Shown in pieces: positions 19,637 to 35,582 of a DNA stretch of 64,000 bases. The DNA is taken from positions 1 through 64,000 of IMG/VR virus record IMGVR_UViG_3300007735_000793; one strand, given 5' to 3'. The position numbers and the translations under genes are program-made. The notes under the pieces were generated by a model. It saw only the letters and a list, made by a program, of their open reading frames with translations, searched no databases and was not told the origin of the DNA. The stretch is from a virus. Position 1 is the stretch's first letter, and every line of letters begins with the position of its first letter.

Positions 19637-19670
19637 TTTGTTTCTCCGATTTATTTTGTTTCTCCGATTT
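19635..19670. repeat. 18-nt perfect tandem duplication at the protease stop / next start
   Basis: attttgtttctccgattt twice (19635-19652, 19653-19670). Confidence 0.85.
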
Positions 19671-20295
19671 GAGGACACTCACAATACCCACCAATTTCGC
19701 AAATGATATCTCTCATAATATCACCTGCTTTTTTATACTTATCAACCTTATTAGTTACTTTAGAAATTACACCCTCATTCATAGGGGACATAAAAGCACC
19801 ATAGGTAGATGGATTACTTACAAAATCCCAACATATCAAATCGAAATCCCCCTCAACTGCCACTGTCCCATCTTCTTTGATTTGACGAACCGAACCCATA
19901 CCCCGCGATGATATACCAACCGTACACCCAGCCTCTACCAACTCTTTAAGTATTCTGCCCGATGGAGTATTTAATATCTCTACCTTACCCATTACATCAT
20001 CACCATCCCACCAAACATCTCTGATAATATGTGATGTGTTTTTTAACTCAACAACGGATGATTCAGGATGGTCTAACTCACCATAAGCACGATTTTCGGC
20101 TATTTCCCTACCCTTATACTTTTGAACTTCACGCTTCAATATATTTTCAGGATATATTCTACCATTTTGGTTTTTTTCATTTGCTCTTTGTAGGACACCG
20201 GTTACAATAAGCCTACCATCTCCCTTCATTGCCGCTTCTTTAAGCTGCTGTGGTTTAACATCAAATACAATAGTATCTACTAATAGCTGTTTCAT
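19651..20295 (-). CDS. Prohead protease (T4 gp21-like)
   Basis: NQNGRIYP, GELDHP, GISSRGMGS, DFVSNPST motifs. Confidence 0.95.
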   Translation of the reverse strand: MKQLLVDTIVFDVKPQQLKEAAMKGDGRLIVTGVLQRANEKNQNGRIYPENILKREVQKYKGREIAENRAYGELDHPESSVVELKNTSHIIRDVWWDGDDVMGKVEILNTPSGRILKELVEAGCTVGISSRGMGSVRQIKEDGTVAVEGDFDLICWDFVSNPSTYGAFMSPMNEGVISKVTNKVDKYKKAGDIMRDIICEIGGYCECPQIGETK

Positions 20296-23652: not shown

Positions 23653-24840
23653 TTATAATAACCAACTTAAATCAACATCATTACCACGAACATCCTTCAT
23701 TGAGTAAGGATTTTGCTGATATGCGTTGTTAGAATACACTCCCTTATCACCTGATACTTTGATTATACTACCCAATGTGCTACGAGTTAAGTCCATACCT
23801 TGCTTTCGTAATTTTAAAGCAGTATCTCTTACCCATAAACCAGTTGAAAATGATATTACCAAATCATCATTGTAACCCCGTTGTGCTTCTGCCTTTGAAC
23901 CATTCCAAATAAAGACAAATAACTCATCTAACAATCTTTTAGAGTGAATTATTGGAGATTTTTCTCTCATATAAGTATCTAATTTAGACACTATTAGAGG
24001 ACGAGTTCTTTGGGTCATTGAAAATCCTGGCACCATATCCTCTTTTAATTTTAGGTCCCATCCCCTCCGCAGATGAATATCATCATCCACATAACCCAAC
24101 TCCCTATATGAATAATAAAGGTTTTGATAATTACGGTCAATTGCCTCCTGAATAACTGCCCACCCAATGTTTGCATTCTCAATTACCAAAAGAGCATTGT
24201 TCCATTCCGTTGCAACTGATGTTAAGAATGCCCCATATTGCTTTGTTTCTATCTTACCCCTATACTCTGCCACCTGTTCAACTCGTTCCACATCAATAAC
24301 ATGAAAAGCAGAGTAATCCGCACCATCACCCCTTGCAACATCCGCAACCACAACATAATCTTTTTCGTAATTTGGATAATCCCATATCCAATAGTTTGCA
24401 TCAAACCCACGCTTTTCAACCGGTTCGGTGATGTAGGTTTCCCTATACCACTCCAAAACGCTACCATCTACAACGGTATAACCTGATGATATGAAATCGC
24501 AATTATGTGATACAACGCCATCTACATTAAATATATTACCCCCACAAACCTCAACAATATCATACAATGTAGTGTCCATATCAGTACATTCAATAGATAC
24601 CACATCAACATACCGATTATCAGCTGATGATATTTTAGAACCTATTACCAAATCGGAAGCCAATATCTTTTCACCATCCAACATAAATGAGTGGTTATCT
24701 GAACATTTTAGTGTTTTTCCGTTTGAAAAGGTTATTGTATAAATTGAGGTCTTGTTTAAGCATCTCATTCCACCAAATGGTTGAAAACCGCTTGGTGTCA
24801 TTATTTCAAACCTATTATTTGCTTTAAATCTATAGTTCAT
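23653..24840 (-). CDS. terL: Terminase large subunit C-part (nuclease) preceded by a 113-aa split-intein C-fragment
   Basis: IntC ends VSHN|CDFISSG; nuclease motifs VADVARGDGADYS and NDDLV. Confidence 0.92.
   Translation of the reverse strand: MNYRFKANNRFEIMTPSGFQPFGGMRCLNKTSIYTITFSNGKTLKCSDNHSFMLDGEKILASDLVIGSKISSADNRYVDVVSIECTDMDTTLYDIVEVCGGNIFNVDGVVSHNCDFISSGYTVVDGSVLEWYRETYITEPVEKRGFDANYWIWDYPNYEKDYVVVADVARGDGADYSAFHVIDVERVEQVAEYRGKIETKQYGAFLTSVATEWNNALLVIENANIGWAVIQEAIDRNYQNLYYSYRELGYVDDDIHLRRGWDLKLKEDMVPGFSMTQRTRPLIVSKLDTYMREKSPIIHSKRLLDELFVFIWNGSKAEAQRGYNDDLVISFSTGLWVRDTALKLRKQGMDLTRSTLGSIIKVSGDKGVYSNNAYQQNPYSMKDVRGNDVDLSWLL
24502..24840 (-). mobile_element. Split intein IntC (113 aa) of TerL
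   Basis: Block B KCSDNH, block F LYDIVEV, block G SHN followed by Cys+1. Confidence 0.9.
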
Positions 24841-25570
24841 TATGTTTTACTCTGATAAAGTTACATGCTAACAATTTCTCTATTTCATATTGGCGTATTA
24901 AATCTTTTTGTTTAAGTTTACCATTTTCATCAAAGTGGTGTTTTTCATCGTATTCTATTACAATATTTTTTTCCTTACTATATCCATCGACAAAGTAACC
25001 AAGTTCTTTTATGTAGTATTCACCACCATTTTCAGCATGTTGTAAGTCGGTTATGCCTAATTTTTTTGCAGCTTTCTCAATTTCCGTAATTGAGTTATAG
25101 TTGTATCTTGGAACAGCCTTACCTTTTAGATTTTCAATATATTTTAATGTAGATAATCTCATTTTATTTTTAGTGGCATTTGTATGTTTTTTACCAAAAA
25201 ACGATTTTTTTGGTTCTGGGCACTGCCTACAATATTTTACCCAATTGTAAACTTTTCCGCATTCACATTTTAGTTTTTCCAAATCACCATTATTTTCTGC
25301 CAAAAAAATCATTCGATACTTAAAGTTGTATTTTCCCTTATATGTGTTTTGTGCTTTTAGGGTATCTTCGAGAAGCTGCGTATGATAGTAAATTGATTTA
25401 TATAATTTTGGGTTTTCACATATCATTGTTCTATTTTTAGCTCTACCAAAATAATTTTTATAATAATATTCCCCCAATAGCAGTTGAATTGTATCTTCAA
25501 TTGAATATAATTCCGATATACTATCTATATTACTTTTTATTTTTTTCCAACCATCTTTTATATACTGCAT
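24830..25570 (-). CDS. Free-standing homing endonuclease (NUMOD3-like + Vsr/DUF559-like nuclease) between the TerL halves
   Basis: CECG..CRQC, FFGKKHTNATKNKMR, YFVDGY..NIVIEYDEKHH..RQ.EIE..CNFIRV. Confidence 0.8.
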   Translation of the reverse strand: MQYIKDGWKKIKSNIDSISELYSIEDTIQLLLGEYYYKNYFGRAKNRTMICENPKLYKSIYYHTQLLEDTLKAQNTYKGKYNFKYRMIFLAENNGDLEKLKCECGKVYNWVKYCRQCPEPKKSFFGKKHTNATKNKMRLSTLKYIENLKGKAVPRYNYNSITEIEKAAKKLGITDLQHAENGGEYYIKELGYFVDGYSKEKNIVIEYDEKHHFDENGKLKQKDLIRQYEIEKLLACNFIRVKHNEL

Positions 25571-25599
25571 AAGCCCCTTTCATTCGCACTCTTGTGTTA

Positions 25600-25606
25600 A
25601 TAAATA
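25600..25606 (-). promoter_or_regulatory. TATTTAT motif (putative late promoter) for the endonuclease/TerL-C unit
   Basis: Same motif precedes ~20 genes in the window. Confidence 0.55.
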
Positions 25607-25611
25607 TGAAA

Positions 25612-26436
25612 TTATAATTTATTATATAACTCAAATAAGGATATTTCACAAATTTCACCTGTATGGGTATCTTTTACAACCACATTTGAATCACCCCACA
25701 AGCAATCGCATTCTTGAGCAGCACCTTTTTCACCCAATAATCGGGTTTGCTCATCTCTCCACCGTTTACTTCTTTCAGGATGAACCGTCCAATGTAACCT
25801 TGTAGGATGCCACTTATCACCACTTTCCCCCTGCAACCATATTTTATGAAAAAAGTTACCTACTCCATTGGGTGTTGAAAGAACAATAGCACCACCACCC
25901 GTTGAAAGTGTGGATTGCGCTGATAACCATATTTCCTCAATACCTTTGATAAAAGCGGCCTCATCAATAATCAATAACGACAGTGCTTCAGAACGTCCTG
26001 CCGTTTCAGTTGCGGATACTGCTTTAATTTGAGAACCATTTTTCAATCTAAGCGATAGCTTGTTATCTTCAGCGGCAGCAACTTTTAACCAACTTGGTAG
26101 ATTATCATACATAAACCTAACTTTGGTTACAAGGTTTTTTGCAACATCCTGGTTAGTTGCAATTACAAGTATGTTTTTATCCCGCTGAAATATCATCAAC
26201 CACAATGAATACCCCGCCGATATGGTTGATATACCCAATTGGCGCGATTTAAGAATAACATTGAATCGGTGATTTTTAAAATCATCAATAAGGTTTTCTT
26301 GAAAATCGTAAAGGTTGAATAGTATCTTACCTTTATGCGGATGTTGTATGTAACAATACTTTTTGAAAAAATATATAGGGTCTGTAGCGCATTTTACATA
26401 CTCATCCGATATTATTTCTTTAAGGCTTTTTGACAT
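25612..26436 (-). CDS. terL: Terminase large subunit N-part (ATPase) ending in a 30-aa split-intein N-fragment
   Basis: KSRQLGIST, LIIDEAAF, STPNG; ..AQECD|CLWGDS..LYNKL*. Confidence 0.92.
   Translation of the reverse strand: MSKSLKEIISDEYVKCATDPIYFFKKYCYIQHPHKGKILFNLYDFQENLIDDFKNHRFNVILKSRQLGISTISAGYSLWLMIFQRDKNILVIATNQDVAKNLVTKVRFMYDNLPSWLKVAAAEDNKLSLRLKNGSQIKAVSATETAGRSEALSLLIIDEAAFIKGIEEIWLSAQSTLSTGGGAIVLSTPNGVGNFFHKIWLQGESGDKWHPTRLHWTVHPERSKRWRDEQTRLLGEKGAAQECDCLWGDSNVVVKDTHTGEICEISLFELYNKL
25615..25704 (-). mobile_element. Split intein IntN (30 aa, atypically short) of TerL
   Basis: Block A CLWGDSNVVV directly after QECD, then stop. Confidence 0.88.
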
Positions 26437-29176: not shown

Positions 29177-31261
29177 TTAAATTCTGACTTTTTTTTTACT
29201 TTCACCCAATGGGTTTCCGTTCACATTCAACTCACCATTCAAATAGTGTTTTGCGTTTACCATCAGCTCTTTGGCACGAATGATATCCGATTGCCACCAA
29301 TGGGGAAAATCAACTTCTTCATCGGTATTATCAAATTGTTTTAACATCTCACCCAATTCGGTCGCATATTTTACTATACGATATAAATCAGCTCTTAACA
29401 TATTTGGTTCATCATCTTGATGCCCCAAATCAATATCTTCAGTTAGGGTTTTTAATTTTTTCAATTTTGCTGTTAAATCAGCCATTTTCTTCAAATGTGC
29501 CGTTTGCTTTGGAGTTCTATCGTTTTGTGGTATTTTGGTAAATGCAGCAGTATCTTTGGCGTTATCTTTTAATGTTTTCTGAATTTTTAACATCTCCCGC
29601 TTTTGCGCTACTTGCTCTTTACCTGCTTTTCTAATTGATGAAGCAGATGGTTCTTCATCATCATCTATTTCGTTTATAACGGGGTATTTCTTTCCACCAA
29701 ACTCAAACTCACTCAACCCTTGCTTTCTTGCATTGAAAAGTGCCCCAGTGAACGCATTACCTTCGTTTATGTTATCCTGTGCCAAAATCATTACATCATC
29801 CAAAGTGCTTGTAACAGGCCCATTCATTGTTCTGATTGTTACTTTGTTACCCTGCACTTTAAGCACCATTCCGGTTTTGTTTTTGGACTTTAAGTGAACA
29901 AAATCACCACGCTCAAAGCCTAAATCTCGTTTTGCCTCATTTACACCATCTTGTGCCAAAATCATTACATCATCCAAAGTGCTTGTAACAGGCCCATTCA
30001 TTGTTCTGATTGTTACTTTGTTACCCTGCACTTTAAGCACCATTCCGGTTTTGTTTTTGGACTTTAAGTGAACAAAATCACCACGCTCAAAGCCTAAATC
30101 TCGTTTACCTTCGTTTTTGGGTTGTCCAAATTTACTTAATATTTTAAATGCGGTTGATTGCATTTTTAATAAGCCTGAATTAACAAACTTATCTTTGTTA
30201 CCAGATTGATTTAACCCATCATATACACTAATAATAGCAGATGCAGAATAACTATCAACTCGCATCTTTCTACCTGTTGCAGGGTCTGTTAATACCTTTG
30301 AACCTGATTTTACAATATCTCTTAACTGAGAAATGATTTTAGGGTCATTCTTTGCTTCATTTACAACAGACTCTTCAGTTCTCCAACCACCACCTGCATC
30401 CTTATATTGTTTCGCAGCCCAAGCATTGGCATATGCTGAATTGCCTGTTATAGTAAACCAGCCATTTTGCATCATAACCCAAGTTTTATTATCAGTTTCA
30501 GGACACCAAACATTCTCTCTTTCACCCAATTGAGTTTTTATAACATTTTGACTTCCATGAGTTTTCTTACCCCTAATTATAGTAACACTAACAACATCAT
30601 TATCAAAATCATTTACAGATACATAATAACCATTCAAATAAGCAGCATATATTGTTGCTAACAAATGGTCTCTATTTTTTTGAGAAAATCCAAAAGTTCT
30701 TCGGCCAACCGCTTTAGTAGATTTACCTTTTTCCCACCCATCATAAACTATGGCACTACTTAACCAAATTTCTCTTTGCTGTGTTGACATTTTTACAATT
30801 TTTTCAACCCAAGAATCGTGCTTTCCCCAATTTTCATTTATCAAATTTAAATCAGTATCGTTTTGCATTGTAGATGAAAATACAATTCTCATATGAGTTG
30901 TTATATCTTTTGCTTCAACCAATTCAGGAGTTCTATTTTCATCACGCCTTATAACCCATTTGTGATTTGGAGTACACCTAAATCTAAATCCTGTTGCTTT
31001 TTTTATTTCCATAAGTGGCGCATCTTCAAAATAATGTATATTTTTTATGGGCGACCATTCAAGATTATCCTTTTCTAAATTGTATGTAAGTATATCTTCT
31101 CCAACTTCTAACTCATCATATGATTTTAACCCATCTTTTGTAACCGCAAGCGAATCAAGAGGAACACATGGGTAAACGTCAAACTTTTTCTTTGCTTGCG
31201 ATTTATAATAAGACCATTTTGATGGGTCTGTTGGAACATTTTTTTCTATTAGTAGTTTCAT
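29177..31261 (-). CDS. Intein-containing modular putative head protein
   Basis: KKFDVYP|intein|SAYANAWAAKQYK..; then several modules separated by NEA/NEG sites, including a duplicated SH3-like module. Confidence 0.75.
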   Translation of the reverse strand: MKLLIEKNVPTDPSKWSYYKSQAKKKFDVYPCVPLDSLAVTKDGLKSYDELEVGEDILTYNLEKDNLEWSPIKNIHYFEDAPLMEIKKATGFRFRCTPNHKWVIRRDENRTPELVEAKDITTHMRIVFSSTMQNDTDLNLINENWGKHDSWVEKIVKMSTQQREIWLSSAIVYDGWEKGKSTKAVGRRTFGFSQKNRDHLLATIYAAYLNGYYVSVNDFDNDVVSVTIIRGKKTHGSQNVIKTQLGERENVWCPETDNKTWVMMQNGWFTITGNSAYANAWAAKQYKDAGGGWRTEESVVNEAKNDPKIISQLRDIVKSGSKVLTDPATGRKMRVDSYSASAIISVYDGLNQSGNKDKFVNSGLLKMQSTAFKILSKFGQPKNEGKRDLGFERGDFVHLKSKNKTGMVLKVQGNKVTIRTMNGPVTSTLDDVMILAQDGVNEAKRDLGFERGDFVHLKSKNKTGMVLKVQGNKVTIRTMNGPVTSTLDDVMILAQDNINEGNAFTGALFNARKQGLSEFEFGGKKYPVINEIDDDEEPSASSIRKAGKEQVAQKREMLKIQKTLKDNAKDTAAFTKIPQNDRTPKQTAHLKKMADLTAKLKKLKTLTEDIDLGHQDDEPNMLRADLYRIVKYATELGEMLKQFDNTDEEVDFPHWWQSDIIRAKELMVNAKHYLNGELNVNGNPLGESKKKVRI
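29778..30106. repeat. Perfect 155-nt duplication (period 174 nt) encoding twin SH3/KOW-like modules
   Basis: 29778-29932 identical to 29952-30106. Confidence 0.9.
30440..31168 (-). mobile_element. Contiguous intein (243 aa) with partial LAGLIDADG-type remnant
   Basis: C1 CVPLDS, block B CTPNHKW, WLSSAIVYDG..FSQKN, block F VWCPET, ends TGN|S. Confidence 0.9.
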
Positions 31262-31859: not shown

Positions 31860-32207
31860 TTATGCACCAGTTTTAACAAAAATCGGAGTTTGCCCCTTTG
31901 ATTGTTCACCGCCCTTTTTAGCATCCCCTGCTTTCTTTTGAGCAGCCCTTTTTCGTTTTACAAACTTAGCCCTTCCTTCCGGTCCTAACTTATTAGCTTT
32001 TTCTTTAGAAAGACATGCTGAGTATGCTTCACCTTCTTCCGCATCCCCACACTTACCCAACTTTTTGCCGGTGGTAGAATACCTATCCCAACCACCACCT
32101 GATGTTGAACCGGTCTTACCCTTACCAAACCACTTTCTTAAATCCTCTCTGATAATTTCTCTTACTACAATTTGGATTAATTCTCTAAGTTGTTGTTTCT
32201 TGTTCAA
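31860..32207 (-). CDS. Basic putative head protein (start revised to TTG 32207)
   Basis: LRELIQIVVREIIRE|DLRKWFG..GGWDR..GKCG..CLSKEKA. Confidence 0.6.
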   Translation of the reverse strand: MNKKQQLRELIQIVVREIIREDLRKWFGKGKTGSTSGGGWDRYSTTGKKLGKCGDAEEGEAYSACLSKEKANKLGPEGRAKFVKRKRAAQKKAGDAKKGGEQSKGQTPIFVKTGA

Positions 32208-32784
32208 GTTCTTTCTCCAATTTTTCGATATATTCCTCACGCAACTTTTCAAAATCGGCATCTATTTTAGACAAAACTGCTTCAATATCAACCCCATTCC
32301 ATTCCTCAACCGAACCATTTTCGTTGATAAACTTCATTTTTAGCGCAACTTTAAGAGCATCCTTTTCAAATTGAGCCTGCTTTAACCATGCTTTCGCATT
32401 CTCCAGCATTTTCTTTTTTTCATACCTATCATACTCCCCACTCATTCGTAATTTTGATTCCATACTCAATACACAATCAAAACACATACCATGAAAAGCA
32501 CGCATTTTTTCATCTAACCTCTTTGGGTTTTTGCATTCGCAGGTTTCCTTCATACAATTAGGGAACTTTTTCAAGTCCTGCCTAAGCTGATGAAGCTTAC
32601 CGAGTTTTACTTTATACCCGGCTTTCTGCTCCCACATATCCCCATTTGTATCCTGCCATTGTTCACCTACTTCCCGACGAACATAACCTGATGTTTCTTC
32701 AAACCCAATAGTTGTTTTTGTTTGGGTTCGGTGTACACCATCCAACATCTCCGAAACCGCTTTTGTATTTTTTAACTTGCTCAT
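32185..32784 (-). CDS. Conserved hypothetical protein with Cys cluster
   Basis: REVGEQWQD..W, C..C.C..CFDC. Confidence 0.7.
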   Translation of the reverse strand: MSKLKNTKAVSEMLDGVHRTQTKTTIGFEETSGYVRREVGEQWQDTNGDMWEQKAGYKVKLGKLHQLRQDLKKFPNCMKETCECKNPKRLDEKMRAFHGMCFDCVLSMESKLRMSGEYDRYEKKKMLENAKAWLKQAQFEKDALKVALKMKFINENGSVEEWNGVDIEAVLSKIDADFEKLREEYIEKLEKELEQETTT

Positions 32785-32810: not shown

Positions 32811-33995
32811 TTAATAGAATAAACCCAAAATTTGATTAAGTGGGGCGAAAGTTCCAGTTAACTTGAGCGTCATACCTTTGTATACAAAAACTATTCCCTC
32901 ATTTGGAACAATCTTATCAGGACCACCTATTGTCGCCATTCTTTCAAGCTCTAATTGTAACTTTCTTATCTTTTTTTCATCCCCACCACTTTTAACATCT
33001 TTAATGGTTTGGTCTAATCGTTGTTTCATATTACGAACTGCTTCATCTGGGTTCACTGTCAATACTGAACTCATAAACGATAATACATCTGCGCCAACCC
33101 CTAAAAATATATCTTCAAATGGTCGAATATTATCTTTTGATATTTTTTGATGATCATTCTTATCCACACCCTTCGCCCACTCTAATACCTTATCCGATTT
33201 TATGTTGTTACTATTTAAGACAAAACTTTTGTCGTAGAATGCCCATCTTTTTATCAAACCTTCTCGTGTAAATTTATCTAATTTTTCGGGTGAGTTTTTA
33301 TCTATGTATTCACCCCACCACGCCTGATGATATTCTGCCATACCATCACTATCTTTTAAACCATATTTTGATTGTAGTTTGTTTAACATCCCCAAATACT
33401 TTGATTGTAATTTTTCCAAGTTTATTTCCTTTGGTAGCTGTGTAATAGGTGGTCCTTGTATTGTGTATTTATCCTGCACATTCTGATTGATTTGTTTAAT
33501 CATTCCCGCTAATACCTTTGCATCAGATTGGTCTGCCCCAATCGCAACACCGGATTCATCGTATTCGGTAGTGTTGTGAAACACCAAAAGAGCCTGACCA
33601 TAAGGTATTACATTTACTGATGTTGGATATATCACTTCCAAATTCATAAACTTTGCACCCTGTTTGAAAATCTTATCCCTTTGTGCTTTTGATAATCGCT
33701 TTATTGCCACTTCTAAATCCCGCATAGCAAAGTTGTAAGCATCAGTTAGCCCACCCCTACCTCCGAACTTTGAAGCAACATCTGCGGCGTTCATTGCGTT
33801 TTCACCCCGATTAGCAAGGTGTCCTTTGTTTCTTGCGGCAATTAACCCCTTATCATCTCGCCAACTAATAGCAAGTGCCTGTCCATCTGTATTATGAACC
33901 AATATACCATTTGCGTAATAACATGAAAAATTATCAACTTTTATGTCATACCTGGTCTGAACTTTGTTTACTGGTTTTATTGATTTAATTTTCAT
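32811..33995 (-). CDS. Split-intein IntC (35 aa) + C-part of an RNA-ligase-like nucleotidyltransferase
   Basis: ..YDIKV..ANGILVHN|TDGQ; ligase-like motifs NLEVI, EGIVF, LKLTG. Confidence 0.8.
   Translation of the reverse strand: MKIKSIKPVNKVQTRYDIKVDNFSCYYANGILVHNTDGQALAISWRDDKGLIAARNKGHLANRGENAMNAADVASKFGGRGGLTDAYNFAMRDLEVAIKRLSKAQRDKIFKQGAKFMNLEVIYPTSVNVIPYGQALLVFHNTTEYDESGVAIGADQSDAKVLAGMIKQINQNVQDKYTIQGPPITQLPKEINLEKLQSKYLGMLNKLQSKYGLKDSDGMAEYHQAWWGEYIDKNSPEKLDKFTREGLIKRWAFYDKSFVLNSNNIKSDKVLEWAKGVDKNDHQKISKDNIRPFEDIFLGVGADVLSFMSSVLTVNPDEAVRNMKQRLDQTIKDVKSGGDEKKIRKLQLELERMATIGGPDKIVPNEGIVFVYKGMTLKLTGTFAPLNQILGLFY
33891..33995 (-). mobile_element. Split intein IntC (35 aa, basic)
   Basis: MKIKSIK..RYDIKVDNFSCYYANGILVHN followed by Thr+1. 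Confidence 0.92.
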
Positions 33996-34007
33996 AGTTT
34001 ATTTCCC

Positions 34008-35582
34008 TCAAAGTGTTTTCAATTCCATATCTTCGGTCAAATCTTTAGCCTGAACATATCCTATACCATCTACATACATTCTATGATTTGGGGTTACTTG
34101 AATGGTTTTACCATCTTCCATTTCGATTTCTAACCACTCATCAGTATCATCGTTATTAAAATATGCTATAACATCCATAAATTCACTATTTCCAGTTTCT
34201 TCATTAAATGATAATACCGAATCGGTAAGTTTATTATCTACAAACTCTGATATGGGTATATTTCCATTATTTTTAGTTTGTATAACACTATCACCCGCTA
34301 TGCACTTTTCTCGAGTTAATTCCAAATCACCTTTTAAGGCCTTTGCTATTATGTTTTTTAAATCACCAAAAGTTAAACCCAACTCTAAATCAAACGGATG
34401 ATTCATATGACCGTATGCCCCGCCTTCTGTCAAATAATCGTTGAACTTTCTACCAATTCTTTCTAATAACTTATATTGCTTTCTATCTATTACTTCTAAT
34501 TTTTTTCCAATCACCCATTCAACAACCTCATATCCTAACCCCCTAAATACTTCCTGCAACTCCTTGTCCTCTACACCAGTAATATCAACCTCTACTTCGG
34601 GTGGAGCTTCAGGTGGTGCAACATCCAATGGAGTAGTAGCAATATCAGCAGTTACATAATCTTCCGTTTCGGGTATATCTAAAAGGTCATCCATTGTGAA
34701 TACCTTTCTTCTACTTGCATATTGATAAAAATCACCCGTACCTTTTGCCGATTTTTTAACCATCGCATCTGCTTTTGGAAACTCTATTTGTGTATATCCA
34801 CCACTAACAAACCAATAATCGTTTTTTTGCGCATCTTTACCCAAACCCAATACTCGTTTTTTACCTGGCGGAACATAAATTGCATCAGGCTCACCTGGAT
34901 CTGCACCATATCCACCTCCCAATGATGATTCAATAAGGGGAATTAAATTATACTTACTGAAGAAGTCTGATATAATTTCGTTTACTCCACCCAGCTTTTG
35001 GGTTATCATATTGTATATTTTTGGATTAAATTTTGGATATGCTTTTTTAAATCCCCCTTTTCTTTGTGATTCATCTCCCGCTGATAACCATTTTCTTACA
35101 TCCGTTCCACTTATTGGATTTGGTTGAGCAGGTGATGTATAAACATAACCACTTTCTTCATATCCACTTACAGGTTTAAATCCGGCACCACTATGAAATT
35201 TTTTGAAATATTTACCACCTAATCGTTGTGCATCTTTTTCCCCTACCACAGTTACAAATGCCGTTGTTTGAGGTGAAAATCCACTTAATATTTCAATTGG
35301 ATTATATGGGTTTTTTACCTGCACTACCTTATTCTTTGGAATATTAAACATTGTAGTCATTATTGTTTTTTTCTCCAAAAAATTAAAGGGGTCTTTAGGT
35401 CCACCACTTTTGTTGGATGTCCCAATCCAAACGGCATCCTTACCAAACTTTTGAACTAAATGTGAATAGGTAGCATAATGCCCCTTATGGAAAGGTTGAA
35501 ACCTACCCGCATATACCACCACTATATCTTTGACTTCTTCGGTTAATATCTCTTTAACCCATTCTTTTATTAAATTTCCCAT
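34008..35582 (-). CDS. HIGH-family nucleotidyltransferase + N-part of ligase-like domain + split-intein IntN
   Basis: YAGRFQPFHKGH, VGEKD, ISGTDVR; EGGAYGHMNHPFD..TREK|CIAGDS.. Confidence 0.82.
   Translation of the reverse strand: MGNLIKEWVKEILTEEVKDIVVVYAGRFQPFHKGHYATYSHLVQKFGKDAVWIGTSNKSGGPKDPFNFLEKKTIMTTMFNIPKNKVVQVKNPYNPIEILSGFSPQTTAFVTVVGEKDAQRLGGKYFKKFHSGAGFKPVSGYEESGYVYTSPAQPNPISGTDVRKWLSAGDESQRKGGFKKAYPKFNPKIYNMITQKLGGVNEIISDFFSKYNLIPLIESSLGGGYGADPGEPDAIYVPPGKKRVLGLGKDAQKNDYWFVSGGYTQIEFPKADAMVKKSAKGTGDFYQYASRRKVFTMDDLLDIPETEDYVTADIATTPLDVAPPEAPPEVEVDITGVEDKELQEVFRGLGYEVVEWVIGKKLEVIDRKQYKLLERIGRKFNDYLTEGGAYGHMNHPFDLELGLTFGDLKNIIAKALKGDLELTREKCIAGDSVIQTKNNGNIPISEFVDNKLTDSVLSFNEETGNSEFMDVIAYFNNDDTDEWLEIEMEDGKTIQVTPNHRMYVDGIGYVQAKDLTEDMELKTL
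34011..34304 (-). mobile_element. Split intein IntN (98 aa, acidic)
   Basis: Block A CIAGDSVI, block B VTPNHRMY, GYVQAKDL, then stop. Confidence 0.92.

Follow-up and report, generated by a model that had tools for sequence, protein, structure and literature searches.

We found that a 64,000-nucleotide (nt) stretch of DNA from an uncultured phage very probably encodes a naturally split class 1 intein, divided at the canonical position and inserted in a domain whose predicted structure most resembles those of RNA ligases. The stretch (hereafter the window) comprises positions 1-64,000 of IMG/VR record IMGVR_UViG_3300007735_000793, a 97-kb fragment that is ~51% complete. The intein interrupts the sequence K↓TDG (arrow, insertion site) of a 785-amino acid (aa) protein that combines an HxGH nucleotidyltransferase with the ligase-like domain. 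The source appears to be a T4-like phage. The two halves are predicted to splice in trans, and the spliced product is predicted to have ligase activity.

The protein is encoded in two open reading frames (ORFs) on the minus strand. ORF A (34008-35582, 524 aa) contains a 426-aa N-extein, ending in GDLELTREK, followed by the 98-aa N-terminal fragment of the intein (IntN). ORF B (32811-33995, 394 aa) begins with the 35-aa C-terminal fragment (IntC) and continues into the C-extein (TDGQALAISW...). The features of the locus are:

34305..35582, minus strand: N-extein, ORF A aa 1-426, with the HxGH domain, a linker and the opening 46 aa of the ligase-like domain
34011..34304, minus strand: IntN, 98 aa (CIAGDS...EDMELKTL), with Cys1, block B TPNH and the match to TIGR01445
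33996..34010, minus strand: TGA stop of ORF A and the 12-nt spacer GGGAAATAAACT, identical in the contigs L112 and L113 (see below)
33891..33995, minus strand: IntC, 35 aa (MKIKSIK...YDIKV...CYYANGILVHN), with the block F Asp, the block G His-Asn and the match to TIGR01443
32811..33890, minus strand: C-extein, 359 aa and stop, beginning with Thr+1 (TDGQ), colinear with aa 427-785 of the orthologue L020
32853..32900, minus strand: candidate motifs IV (EGIVF) and V (LKLTG), ORF B residues 366-381, in conserved columns

Intein fragments and insertion site

Homologues that lack the intein define the insertion site. An intein-free orthologue (L020:2223-4580) encodes 785 aa, exactly the sum of the two exteins (426 + 359). 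Both exteins align with it without gaps; the N-extein is 77% identical to aa 1-426 and the C-extein is 89% identical to aa 427-785. The junction sequence REKTDGQ was contiguous in 59 of the 68 classifiable IMG/VR loci, including one (L016) with a C-extein 93% identical to that in the window, and altogether hundreds of relatives have this sequence unbroken. More distant phages (Microcystis phage Mel-JY01, LR756508 and LR756500) have a contiguous EKLDG or EKTDG. Among 150 representatives of the family, motif I was mostly KTDG or KLDG, and also KVDG.

The N-extein ends in the motif I lysine (Lys426, position -1 relative to the intein) and the C-extein starts with T-D-G. Thus, motif I would be intact only after splicing, and we can soundly infer that enzyme activity requires splicing. 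A previous reading of the window, made from the sequence only, had proposed this arrangement, and its description was exact: ORF A ends in TREK↓CIAGDS and a 98-aa IntN with 21 D/E and 6 K/R, ORF B begins 12 nt further on with a 35-aa IntC (6 K/R and 2 D/E) that ends in VHN↓TDGQ, and joining the exteins restores motif I as EKTDGQ. Intein-free homologues with a contiguous EKTDGQ, which that reading had named as a check, are those described above.

The junction between the ORFs consists of the TGA of ORF A, the 12-nt spacer and the ATG of ORF B. A Shine-Dalgarno-like motif (GAGG) overlaps the TGA. The two ORFs share a reading frame, in which the spacer has a further stop codon, TAA. Based on the TAA in the spacer and the GAGG over the TGA, the sequence specifies termination and re-initiation, not read-through. 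We considered and rejected read-through of the TGA into a cis-intein; the TAA comes next, so that read-through would be blocked twice.

Both fragments were recognized by models of intein sequences. IntN matched the NCBIfam model intein_Nterm (TIGR01445) with 38.8 bits (cut-off 24.5) over ORF A residues 427-504, and IntC matched intein_Cterm (TIGR01443) with 20.1 bits (cut-off 15.6) over ORF B residues 16-36. Both halves taken together matched Pfam Intein_splicing with 45.9 bits, above the cut-off. The closest solved relative of IntN was the split intein NrdJ-1 (8ubs; E 3.8e-10), and DnaE inteins were next. Cys1 and T-P-N-H were unchanged across 15 IntN alleles, with IntN identity down to 44%, and Y16, D17 (the block F Asp), H34, N35 and Thr+1 were unchanged across 13 IntC alleles. 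The locus has the sequence hallmarks of a class 1 intein: Cys1, TxxH, the block F Asp, His-Asn, Thr+1 and a colinear host protein.

The two fragments carry opposite charge; IntN has a net charge of about -15 and IntC of about +4. We also predicted the structure of the IntN-IntC complex. The interaction prediction score from aligned errors (ipSAE) was 0.63, and that of the best control was 0.01. Contact agreement between runs was at least 92% and the predicted local distance difference test (pLDDT) value of the partner was at least 68. Among solved complexes, 58 of 80 passed the ipSAE mark, compared to 2 of 110 mismatched pairs. Because complexes of split inteins are already in the PDB, passing this mark shows likeness and not binding, and the prediction may reflect likeness to the solved split inteins.

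The steps of splicing follow from the established chemistry of class 1 inteins. The acidic IntN and the basic IntC would associate into a HINT fold, helped by their opposite charge. An N-S acyl shift at Cys1 would produce a thioester, which Thr+1 would attack (trans-esterification). Cyclization of Asn35 and an O-N shift would then yield a seamless ...TREK-TDGQ... protein. Only this spliced product would hold an intact nucleotidyl-lysine active site.

The host protein

The host protein appears to combine two enzymes. ORF A aa 23-164 form a cytidylyltransferase/NMNAT-like HxGH domain with the motifs FHKGH and ISGTDVR (Pfam CTP_transf_like PF01467, 31.1 bits, cut-off 21). Matches of ORF A to NMNAT models in NCBIfam were weak and below their cut-offs. 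A linker region of ~200 aa and unassigned fold lies between the HxGH and ligase-like domains. The ligase-like domain begins GGAYGHMNHPFD in ORF A, after ...YLTE, and runs through the whole C-extein.

The ligase-like domain has candidates for all of the motifs expected in this order. The C-extein contains candidate motifs Ia (ARNKG), III (NLEVIY) and IIIa (LLVFH), then a helical insertion of ~170 aa, and then motifs IV and V near the C-terminus of ORF B. Motif V is not followed by an OB domain. Across 40 intein-free homologues, the invariant columns (numbered as in P0037) were K55, D57 and G58 (motif I), R74, E139, E385, G386 and F389, and the columns F158, H159 and K397 were nearly so. The order of the conserved columns is that of ligase motifs I, Ia, III, IIIa, IV and V. 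The sequence-only reading had taken EGIVF and LKLTG for motifs IV and V, and the conservation of E385, G386, F389 and K397 agrees with this.

Structural comparisons pointed to RNA ligases. An AlphaFold (AF2) model of the domain had a pLDDT of 89.7 and a predicted template modelling score (pTM) of 0.85. The best matches found with Foldseek were RNA ligases only (Rnl3, T4 Rnl1, Trl1, NgrRnl and Rnl2; best E 5e-3). With VIA-align, RNA ligases took all of the top nine places, at Z 7.1-8.6 over 184-215 aligned residues; NgrRnl (8.6, 184 aa aligned), TbREL1 (8.3), Trl1 (8.3), T4 Rnl1 (8.1), Rnl2 (7.9) and Rnl3 (7.1) were among them. DNA ligases (Z 5-7) and capping enzymes (5.2) ranked lower.

The family to which this domain belongs is large (1791 clusters at 50% identity). 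In nearly all cases the domain makes up the C-terminal part of its protein, and these proteins reach 1930 aa in length. One such protein (P0143, 1930 aa) contains, in order, a CTP_transf_like HxGH domain, DUF5661, a Pnk-like kinase (AAA_33), an HD domain, a PolyA_pol/CCA-adding domain and the ligase-like domain. This architecture looks like a typical set for healing and sealing RNA ends, an apparent single-chain repair kit, and the kinase, HD and CCA-adding domains recall tRNA repair by T4 Pnkp and Rnl1. Based on the fold matches, the motif columns and the architecture of P0143, we call the domain RNA-ligase-like. Our confidence in this is moderate, and we are surer of the superfamily than of the substrate. 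The host enzyme probably represents a widespread family, so far without annotation, of RNA ligases linked to RNA repair.

The domain is like the known RNA ligases NgrRnl (Rnl5), TbREL1 and T4 Rnl2 (Rnl2), T4 Rnl1, fungal Trl1 and archaeal Rnl3 in keeping the order of the motifs and in lacking the OB domain, and by its predicted structure it may share their adenylyltransferase fold. It is unlike them in having the helical insertion, an N-terminal GGxYGHxxHPF, the fusion to an HxGH domain and no detectable membership in a sequence family.

Several points weigh against the ligase assignment. It leans on a predicted structure, and the Z scores, consistent in their ranking, are middling; according to the calibration of the tool, a Z of 7-8 is the typical best match of an unmatched model. 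The values are middling partly because the helical insertion interrupts the domain. Apart from the intein, searches with the ligase-like domain, P0037 and ORF B gave no match in Pfam or NCBIfam, and the domain gave none in PHROGs. Searching the sequences in the PDB with a single sequence or with a 40-sequence profile gave no true match to the domain; matches to eS6 were spurious, due to the K-rich helical insertion. Alignment of the family profile to T4 Rnl1 (RnlA) with hhalign was not significant (E 0.11). The register of that alignment was correct, with EKTDG on TKEDG (K99) and NLEVIYP on NFEFVAP. We also set aside the label DUF6267, which the Atlas gives to ~24% of the cluster members; P0037 gave no DUF6267 match in Pfam, and we found none in the literature. 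The RNA-ligase-like host of the sequence-only reading is supported by the predicted fold, the invariant residues and the domain neighbours in P0143, and by none of the sequence family models.

It is possible, though we think it rather unlikely, that the intein is real and that the host is something other than an RNA ligase. Candidates would then be DNA ligases, enzymes of the capping type and nucleotidyltransferases with some other substrate; the last might, for instance, work jointly with the HxGH domain to modify a nucleotide cofactor or else a protein. The lack of sequence-family membership and the unexplained NMNAT-like fusion would fit such an enzyme, and the Z scores of the DNA ligases (5.3-7.0) run up to those of the RNA ligases. 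In addition, we searched the 97-kb record for a Pnk-like kinase (AAA_33) and a CCA-adding enzyme (PolyA_pol) and found neither, a result that is uninformative because about half of the genome is missing from the record. In contrast, all nine of the top structural matches are RNA ligases, the OB domain is absent after motif V as it is in the Rnl families, and P0143 has kinase, HD and CCA-adding domains ahead of its ligase-like domain. On balance we prefer the RNA-ligase-like assignment.

The protein may also be processed. The window encodes a T4-type prohead protease (Peptidase_S77, E 3.9e-34; 19651-20295, minus strand). The motif [LIVMF]-x-E is found directly before the GGxYGHxxHPF that starts the ligase-like domain in 154 of 173 family members, and standalone ligase-like proteins have a leader of ~15 aa that ends in this motif. 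The protein in the window has ...YLTE↓GGAYGHM (arrow, putative cleavage site) and also an N-terminal ...EILTE. The placement of [LIVMF]-x-E fits capsid-targeted polyproteins that are cut by the prohead protease.

In a 462-kb phage (LR756500; L003:2818-6076), the ligase-like domain is a standalone protein of 421 aa, and the product of the adjoining gene (653 aa) bears a CTP_transf_like domain at its C-terminus (aa 484-622). The two modules thus stay together also where they are separate proteins.

A more extended proposal, which we offer as tentative, is that the host is the first example of a very large family of phage RNA-ligase-fold proteins not described before. These would be made late as polyproteins, which the T4-type prohead protease would cut at [LIVMF]-x-E↓GG. 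They would then enter the capsid and leave it together with the DNA, perhaps to counter host defence by repairing RNA (tRNA). Both packaging and activity of the ligase half would then depend on trans-splicing to the N-terminal half that bears the leader. In this proposal, the contiguous, fractured and endonuclease-less Cys1/Thr+1 alleles described below would be a ready-made set for studying the origins of split inteins and for the construction of an orthogonal tool.

Allele series and origin of the split form

Most relatives of this intein are split at the same position and carry an endonuclease gene between the halves. We scanned IMG/VR for the junction YYANxILxHN↓TDGQ and found 24 loci. In ~19 of these, IntN and IntC are separated at the same position by 750-950 nt, with an ORF of 190-304 aa inside. 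The intervening ORFs, of which L009:693-1427 and L008:1459-2373 are two, match Pfam DUF7487 and families of homing endonucleases in PHROG, and the endonucleases end in a Vsr-like module, GY..DGY...E.DE.HH. IntN in these alleles ends in ...LK(T/I)(L/I/V) and a stop codon, and IntC begins with M(K/R)IKSI. The window has only the 12-nt spacer in place of the endonuclease that marks a fractured gene. Because ~19 of the 24 sister alleles carry an endonuclease, the locus in the window appears to derive from the fractured-gene arrangement that is already known. The sequence-only reading had noted that there was no intervening endonuclease, which is correct for the window and does not extend to most of the sister alleles.

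Other forms of the allele were also found. Four sequences (L097, P0015, P0032 and P0209) have a contiguous mini-intein of 136-139 aa at the same site. One locus (L109:3451-3974) has a split allele that lacks the endonuclease, with a gap of 56 nt between the halves. Of the endonuclease gene, this gap keeps the final codons and the 5' leader (CCATCTGTTTTTTC), a clear deletion scar. L109 and the window are the only endonuclease-less forms among ~22 classifiable IMG/VR alleles. The nearest relatives of the window IntN (93%) are endonuclease-bearing alleles, and those of the L109 IntN (65%) are different alleles that also carry an endonuclease, which suggests that there were two independent losses of the endonuclease, one in each lineage.

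The intein dates from well after the genes that contain it diverged. Synonymous divergence (dS) between the window and L008 was 0.20 in the intein, compared to 0.75-1.06 in the flanking exteins. This points to lateral transfer, as expected if a young intein has spread by homing among older host genes.

Comparison of the alleles supports a route in which a free-standing Vsr-like homing endonuclease entered a contiguous mini-intein and thereby produced a fractured gene. The fractured gene would have spread laterally among phages, and the lineage of the window would then have lost the endonuclease cassette, leaving a minimal split intein. One observation tells against the last step: when we compared the 12-nt spacer by eye with the 3' end of the endonuclease gene in L009, there was no convincing endonuclease remnant. 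The case for loss, and not a direct split, in the window comes from its relatives. The contiguous alleles, the alleles fractured by an endonuclease and those without one (L109 with its remnants, the window with 12 nt) represent all stages of the route from mini-intein to split intein. Because all of the stages are found in natural alleles, the gene-breaking model is directly testable with natural sequences.

Both intein fragments are under purifying selection. The ratio of nonsynonymous to synonymous substitutions (dN/dS, Nei-Gojobori) was 0.12-0.17 for IntN and 0.07-0.11 for IntC, values similar to those for the C-extein (0.08-0.10). Comparisons of the N-extein with L099 and L107 were dropped because the N-terminal architectures are non-homologous there.

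These values bear on whether the locus is a decaying relic that no longer splices, with halves that are non-functional or are held by the intein fragments only in a non-covalent complex. Among the three residues that serve as +1 nucleophiles Thr is the weakest, and splicing rates could be low, which counts against our interpretation and would fit a relic. The rarity of the endonuclease-less form would fit as well, and close relatives such as L016 have no intein, indicating that it is dispensable for this phage lineage. However, the catalytic residues are all intact and invariant, purifying selection acts on both fragments and both exteins, and the exteins have neither gaps nor stop codons compared to the intact orthologue L020. 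In addition, the arrangement has been kept in three diverged sequences (below), and an un-excised HINT domain between the Lys and Thr-Asp-Gly would be hard to square with an active site. We therefore consider a relic improbable, and favor an intein that splices in trans.

The split itself is present in independent assemblies. We searched for the junction with a degenerate pattern (...MELK(T/I)x and a stop, 0-30 nt, then MKIKS), and it matched two metagenome contigs in ENA, OGWD01000440.1 and OGVY01000525.1 (L112 and L113). The stop, spacer and start in both are letter-for-letter the same as in the window. Over 2.6-3 kb, the contigs differ from the window by 28-30 substitutions (98.5-98.6% identity), and in L113 both ORF A and ORF B are intact. 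Furthermore, ~28 protein clusters (62-97% identity) open with the IntC sequence MKIKSI...HN↓TDGQ. An assembly error in a contiguous mini-intein, which the sequence-only reading had named as the finding that would overturn it, is contradicted by the identical junction in three non-identical assemblies. An artefact or recoding, in which the stop and spacer are erroneous or read through, has almost no chance of being correct: ORF A and ORF B do share a frame and contiguous mini-inteins do exist at the site, but the three sequences were assembled independently, TGA and TAA lie in frame within 15 nt and are accompanied by a Shine-Dalgarno-like motif and an ATG, and the split position is common to the ~19 endonuclease-bearing alleles.

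Known systems and genomic setting

Split inteins that arose from fractured genes are already known in phage enzymes that act on nucleic acids. In Dassa et al. (2009; PMC2677866), fractured genes combine split inteins with free-standing Vsr-like or GIY-YIG homing endonucleases; gp41-1, gp41-8, NrdJ-1 and IMPDH-1 are examples, and gp41-7 has no endonuclease. Like the systems in that text, the intein described here comes from environmental phages, has a canonical split (IntN ~100 aa, IntC 35-40 aa) and has acidic and basic fragments. Its sister alleles carry an endonuclease of the Vsr-like type, and the allele series fits the stepwise model. In lacking an endonuclease, the intein in the window resembles gp41-7. 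Unlike the fractured genes presented there, it has a K↓TDG site in a ligase-fold host, Thr+1 and a 12-nt spacer, and contiguous, fractured and endonuclease-less states are all found for one allele.

There is a precedent among ligases. The same text includes a Felix01-like DNA ligase that contains a split intein (Lake Gatun locus, endonuclease included). As in the window, a split intein interrupts a phage covalent nucleotidyltransferase; unlike the window, that host is a bona fide DNA ligase of another family and the endonuclease is present. The sequence-only reading had called the host unusual, which this precedent qualifies. It had also called Thr+1 less common; the combination of Cys1 with Thr+1 is uncommon but known, in cis inteins (PMC10189870).

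The closest solved intein, NrdJ-1 (8ubs), shares with ours Cys1, a TP(N/D)H block B, an ...ANDILVHN-type C-terminus and the split position, and the IntN fragments are ~38% identical. In contrast, the host of NrdJ-1 is ribonucleotide reductase and its +1 residue is Ser. The divergence between the two makes cross-reactivity uncertain.

What is new here is the host family and insertion site, a naturally split Cys1/Thr+1 intein, and the coexistence of all evolutionary stages for one allele. We found no earlier report in the literature of a split intein in an RNA ligase or a cytidylyltransferase. The intein marks Lys426 as a critical residue of a widespread enzyme family. For protein engineering, it is a candidate orthogonal Cys1/Thr+1 pair with a canonical split and a natural cis-splicing counterpart.

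The phage from which the window derives appears, by its sequence, to be a distant T4-like myovirus. The portal protein is 51-53% identical to those of Microcystis phage Mel-JY01 and the Flavobacterium 'immuto' phages. The split ligase-like gene is within the late structural module, where it separates a tail fibre gene from the genes for terminase, portal and prohead protease. Immediately downstream of ORF B is a gene for a 199-aa Cys-rich protein (32185-32784, minus strand), which had no match in PHROG. In LR756508 this protein (L002:4294-4938) is conserved and keeps its position beside the ligase-like gene, which in L020 and L016 is followed by ORFs of about that size.

The large terminase (TerL) gene in the same window (23653-26436, minus strand) is also a fractured gene. 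Its parts are:

25612-26436, minus strand: TerL N-terminal piece
24830-25570, minus strand: free-standing endonuclease between the TerL pieces
23653-24840, minus strand: TerL C-terminal piece

The terminase endonuclease is of the same family as the one within the ligase intein of the sister phages, with which it shares 58% identity over its C-terminal, catalytic 90 aa. There is a weak match to Intein_splicing at 24676-24756. A third intein is near the N-terminus of a 694-aa protein of unassigned function (29177-31261, minus strand). It matched Intein_splicing with 27.9 bits over aa 47-232, and there was also a match at 30785-31123. The same protein has two tandem SH3/KOW-like repeats.

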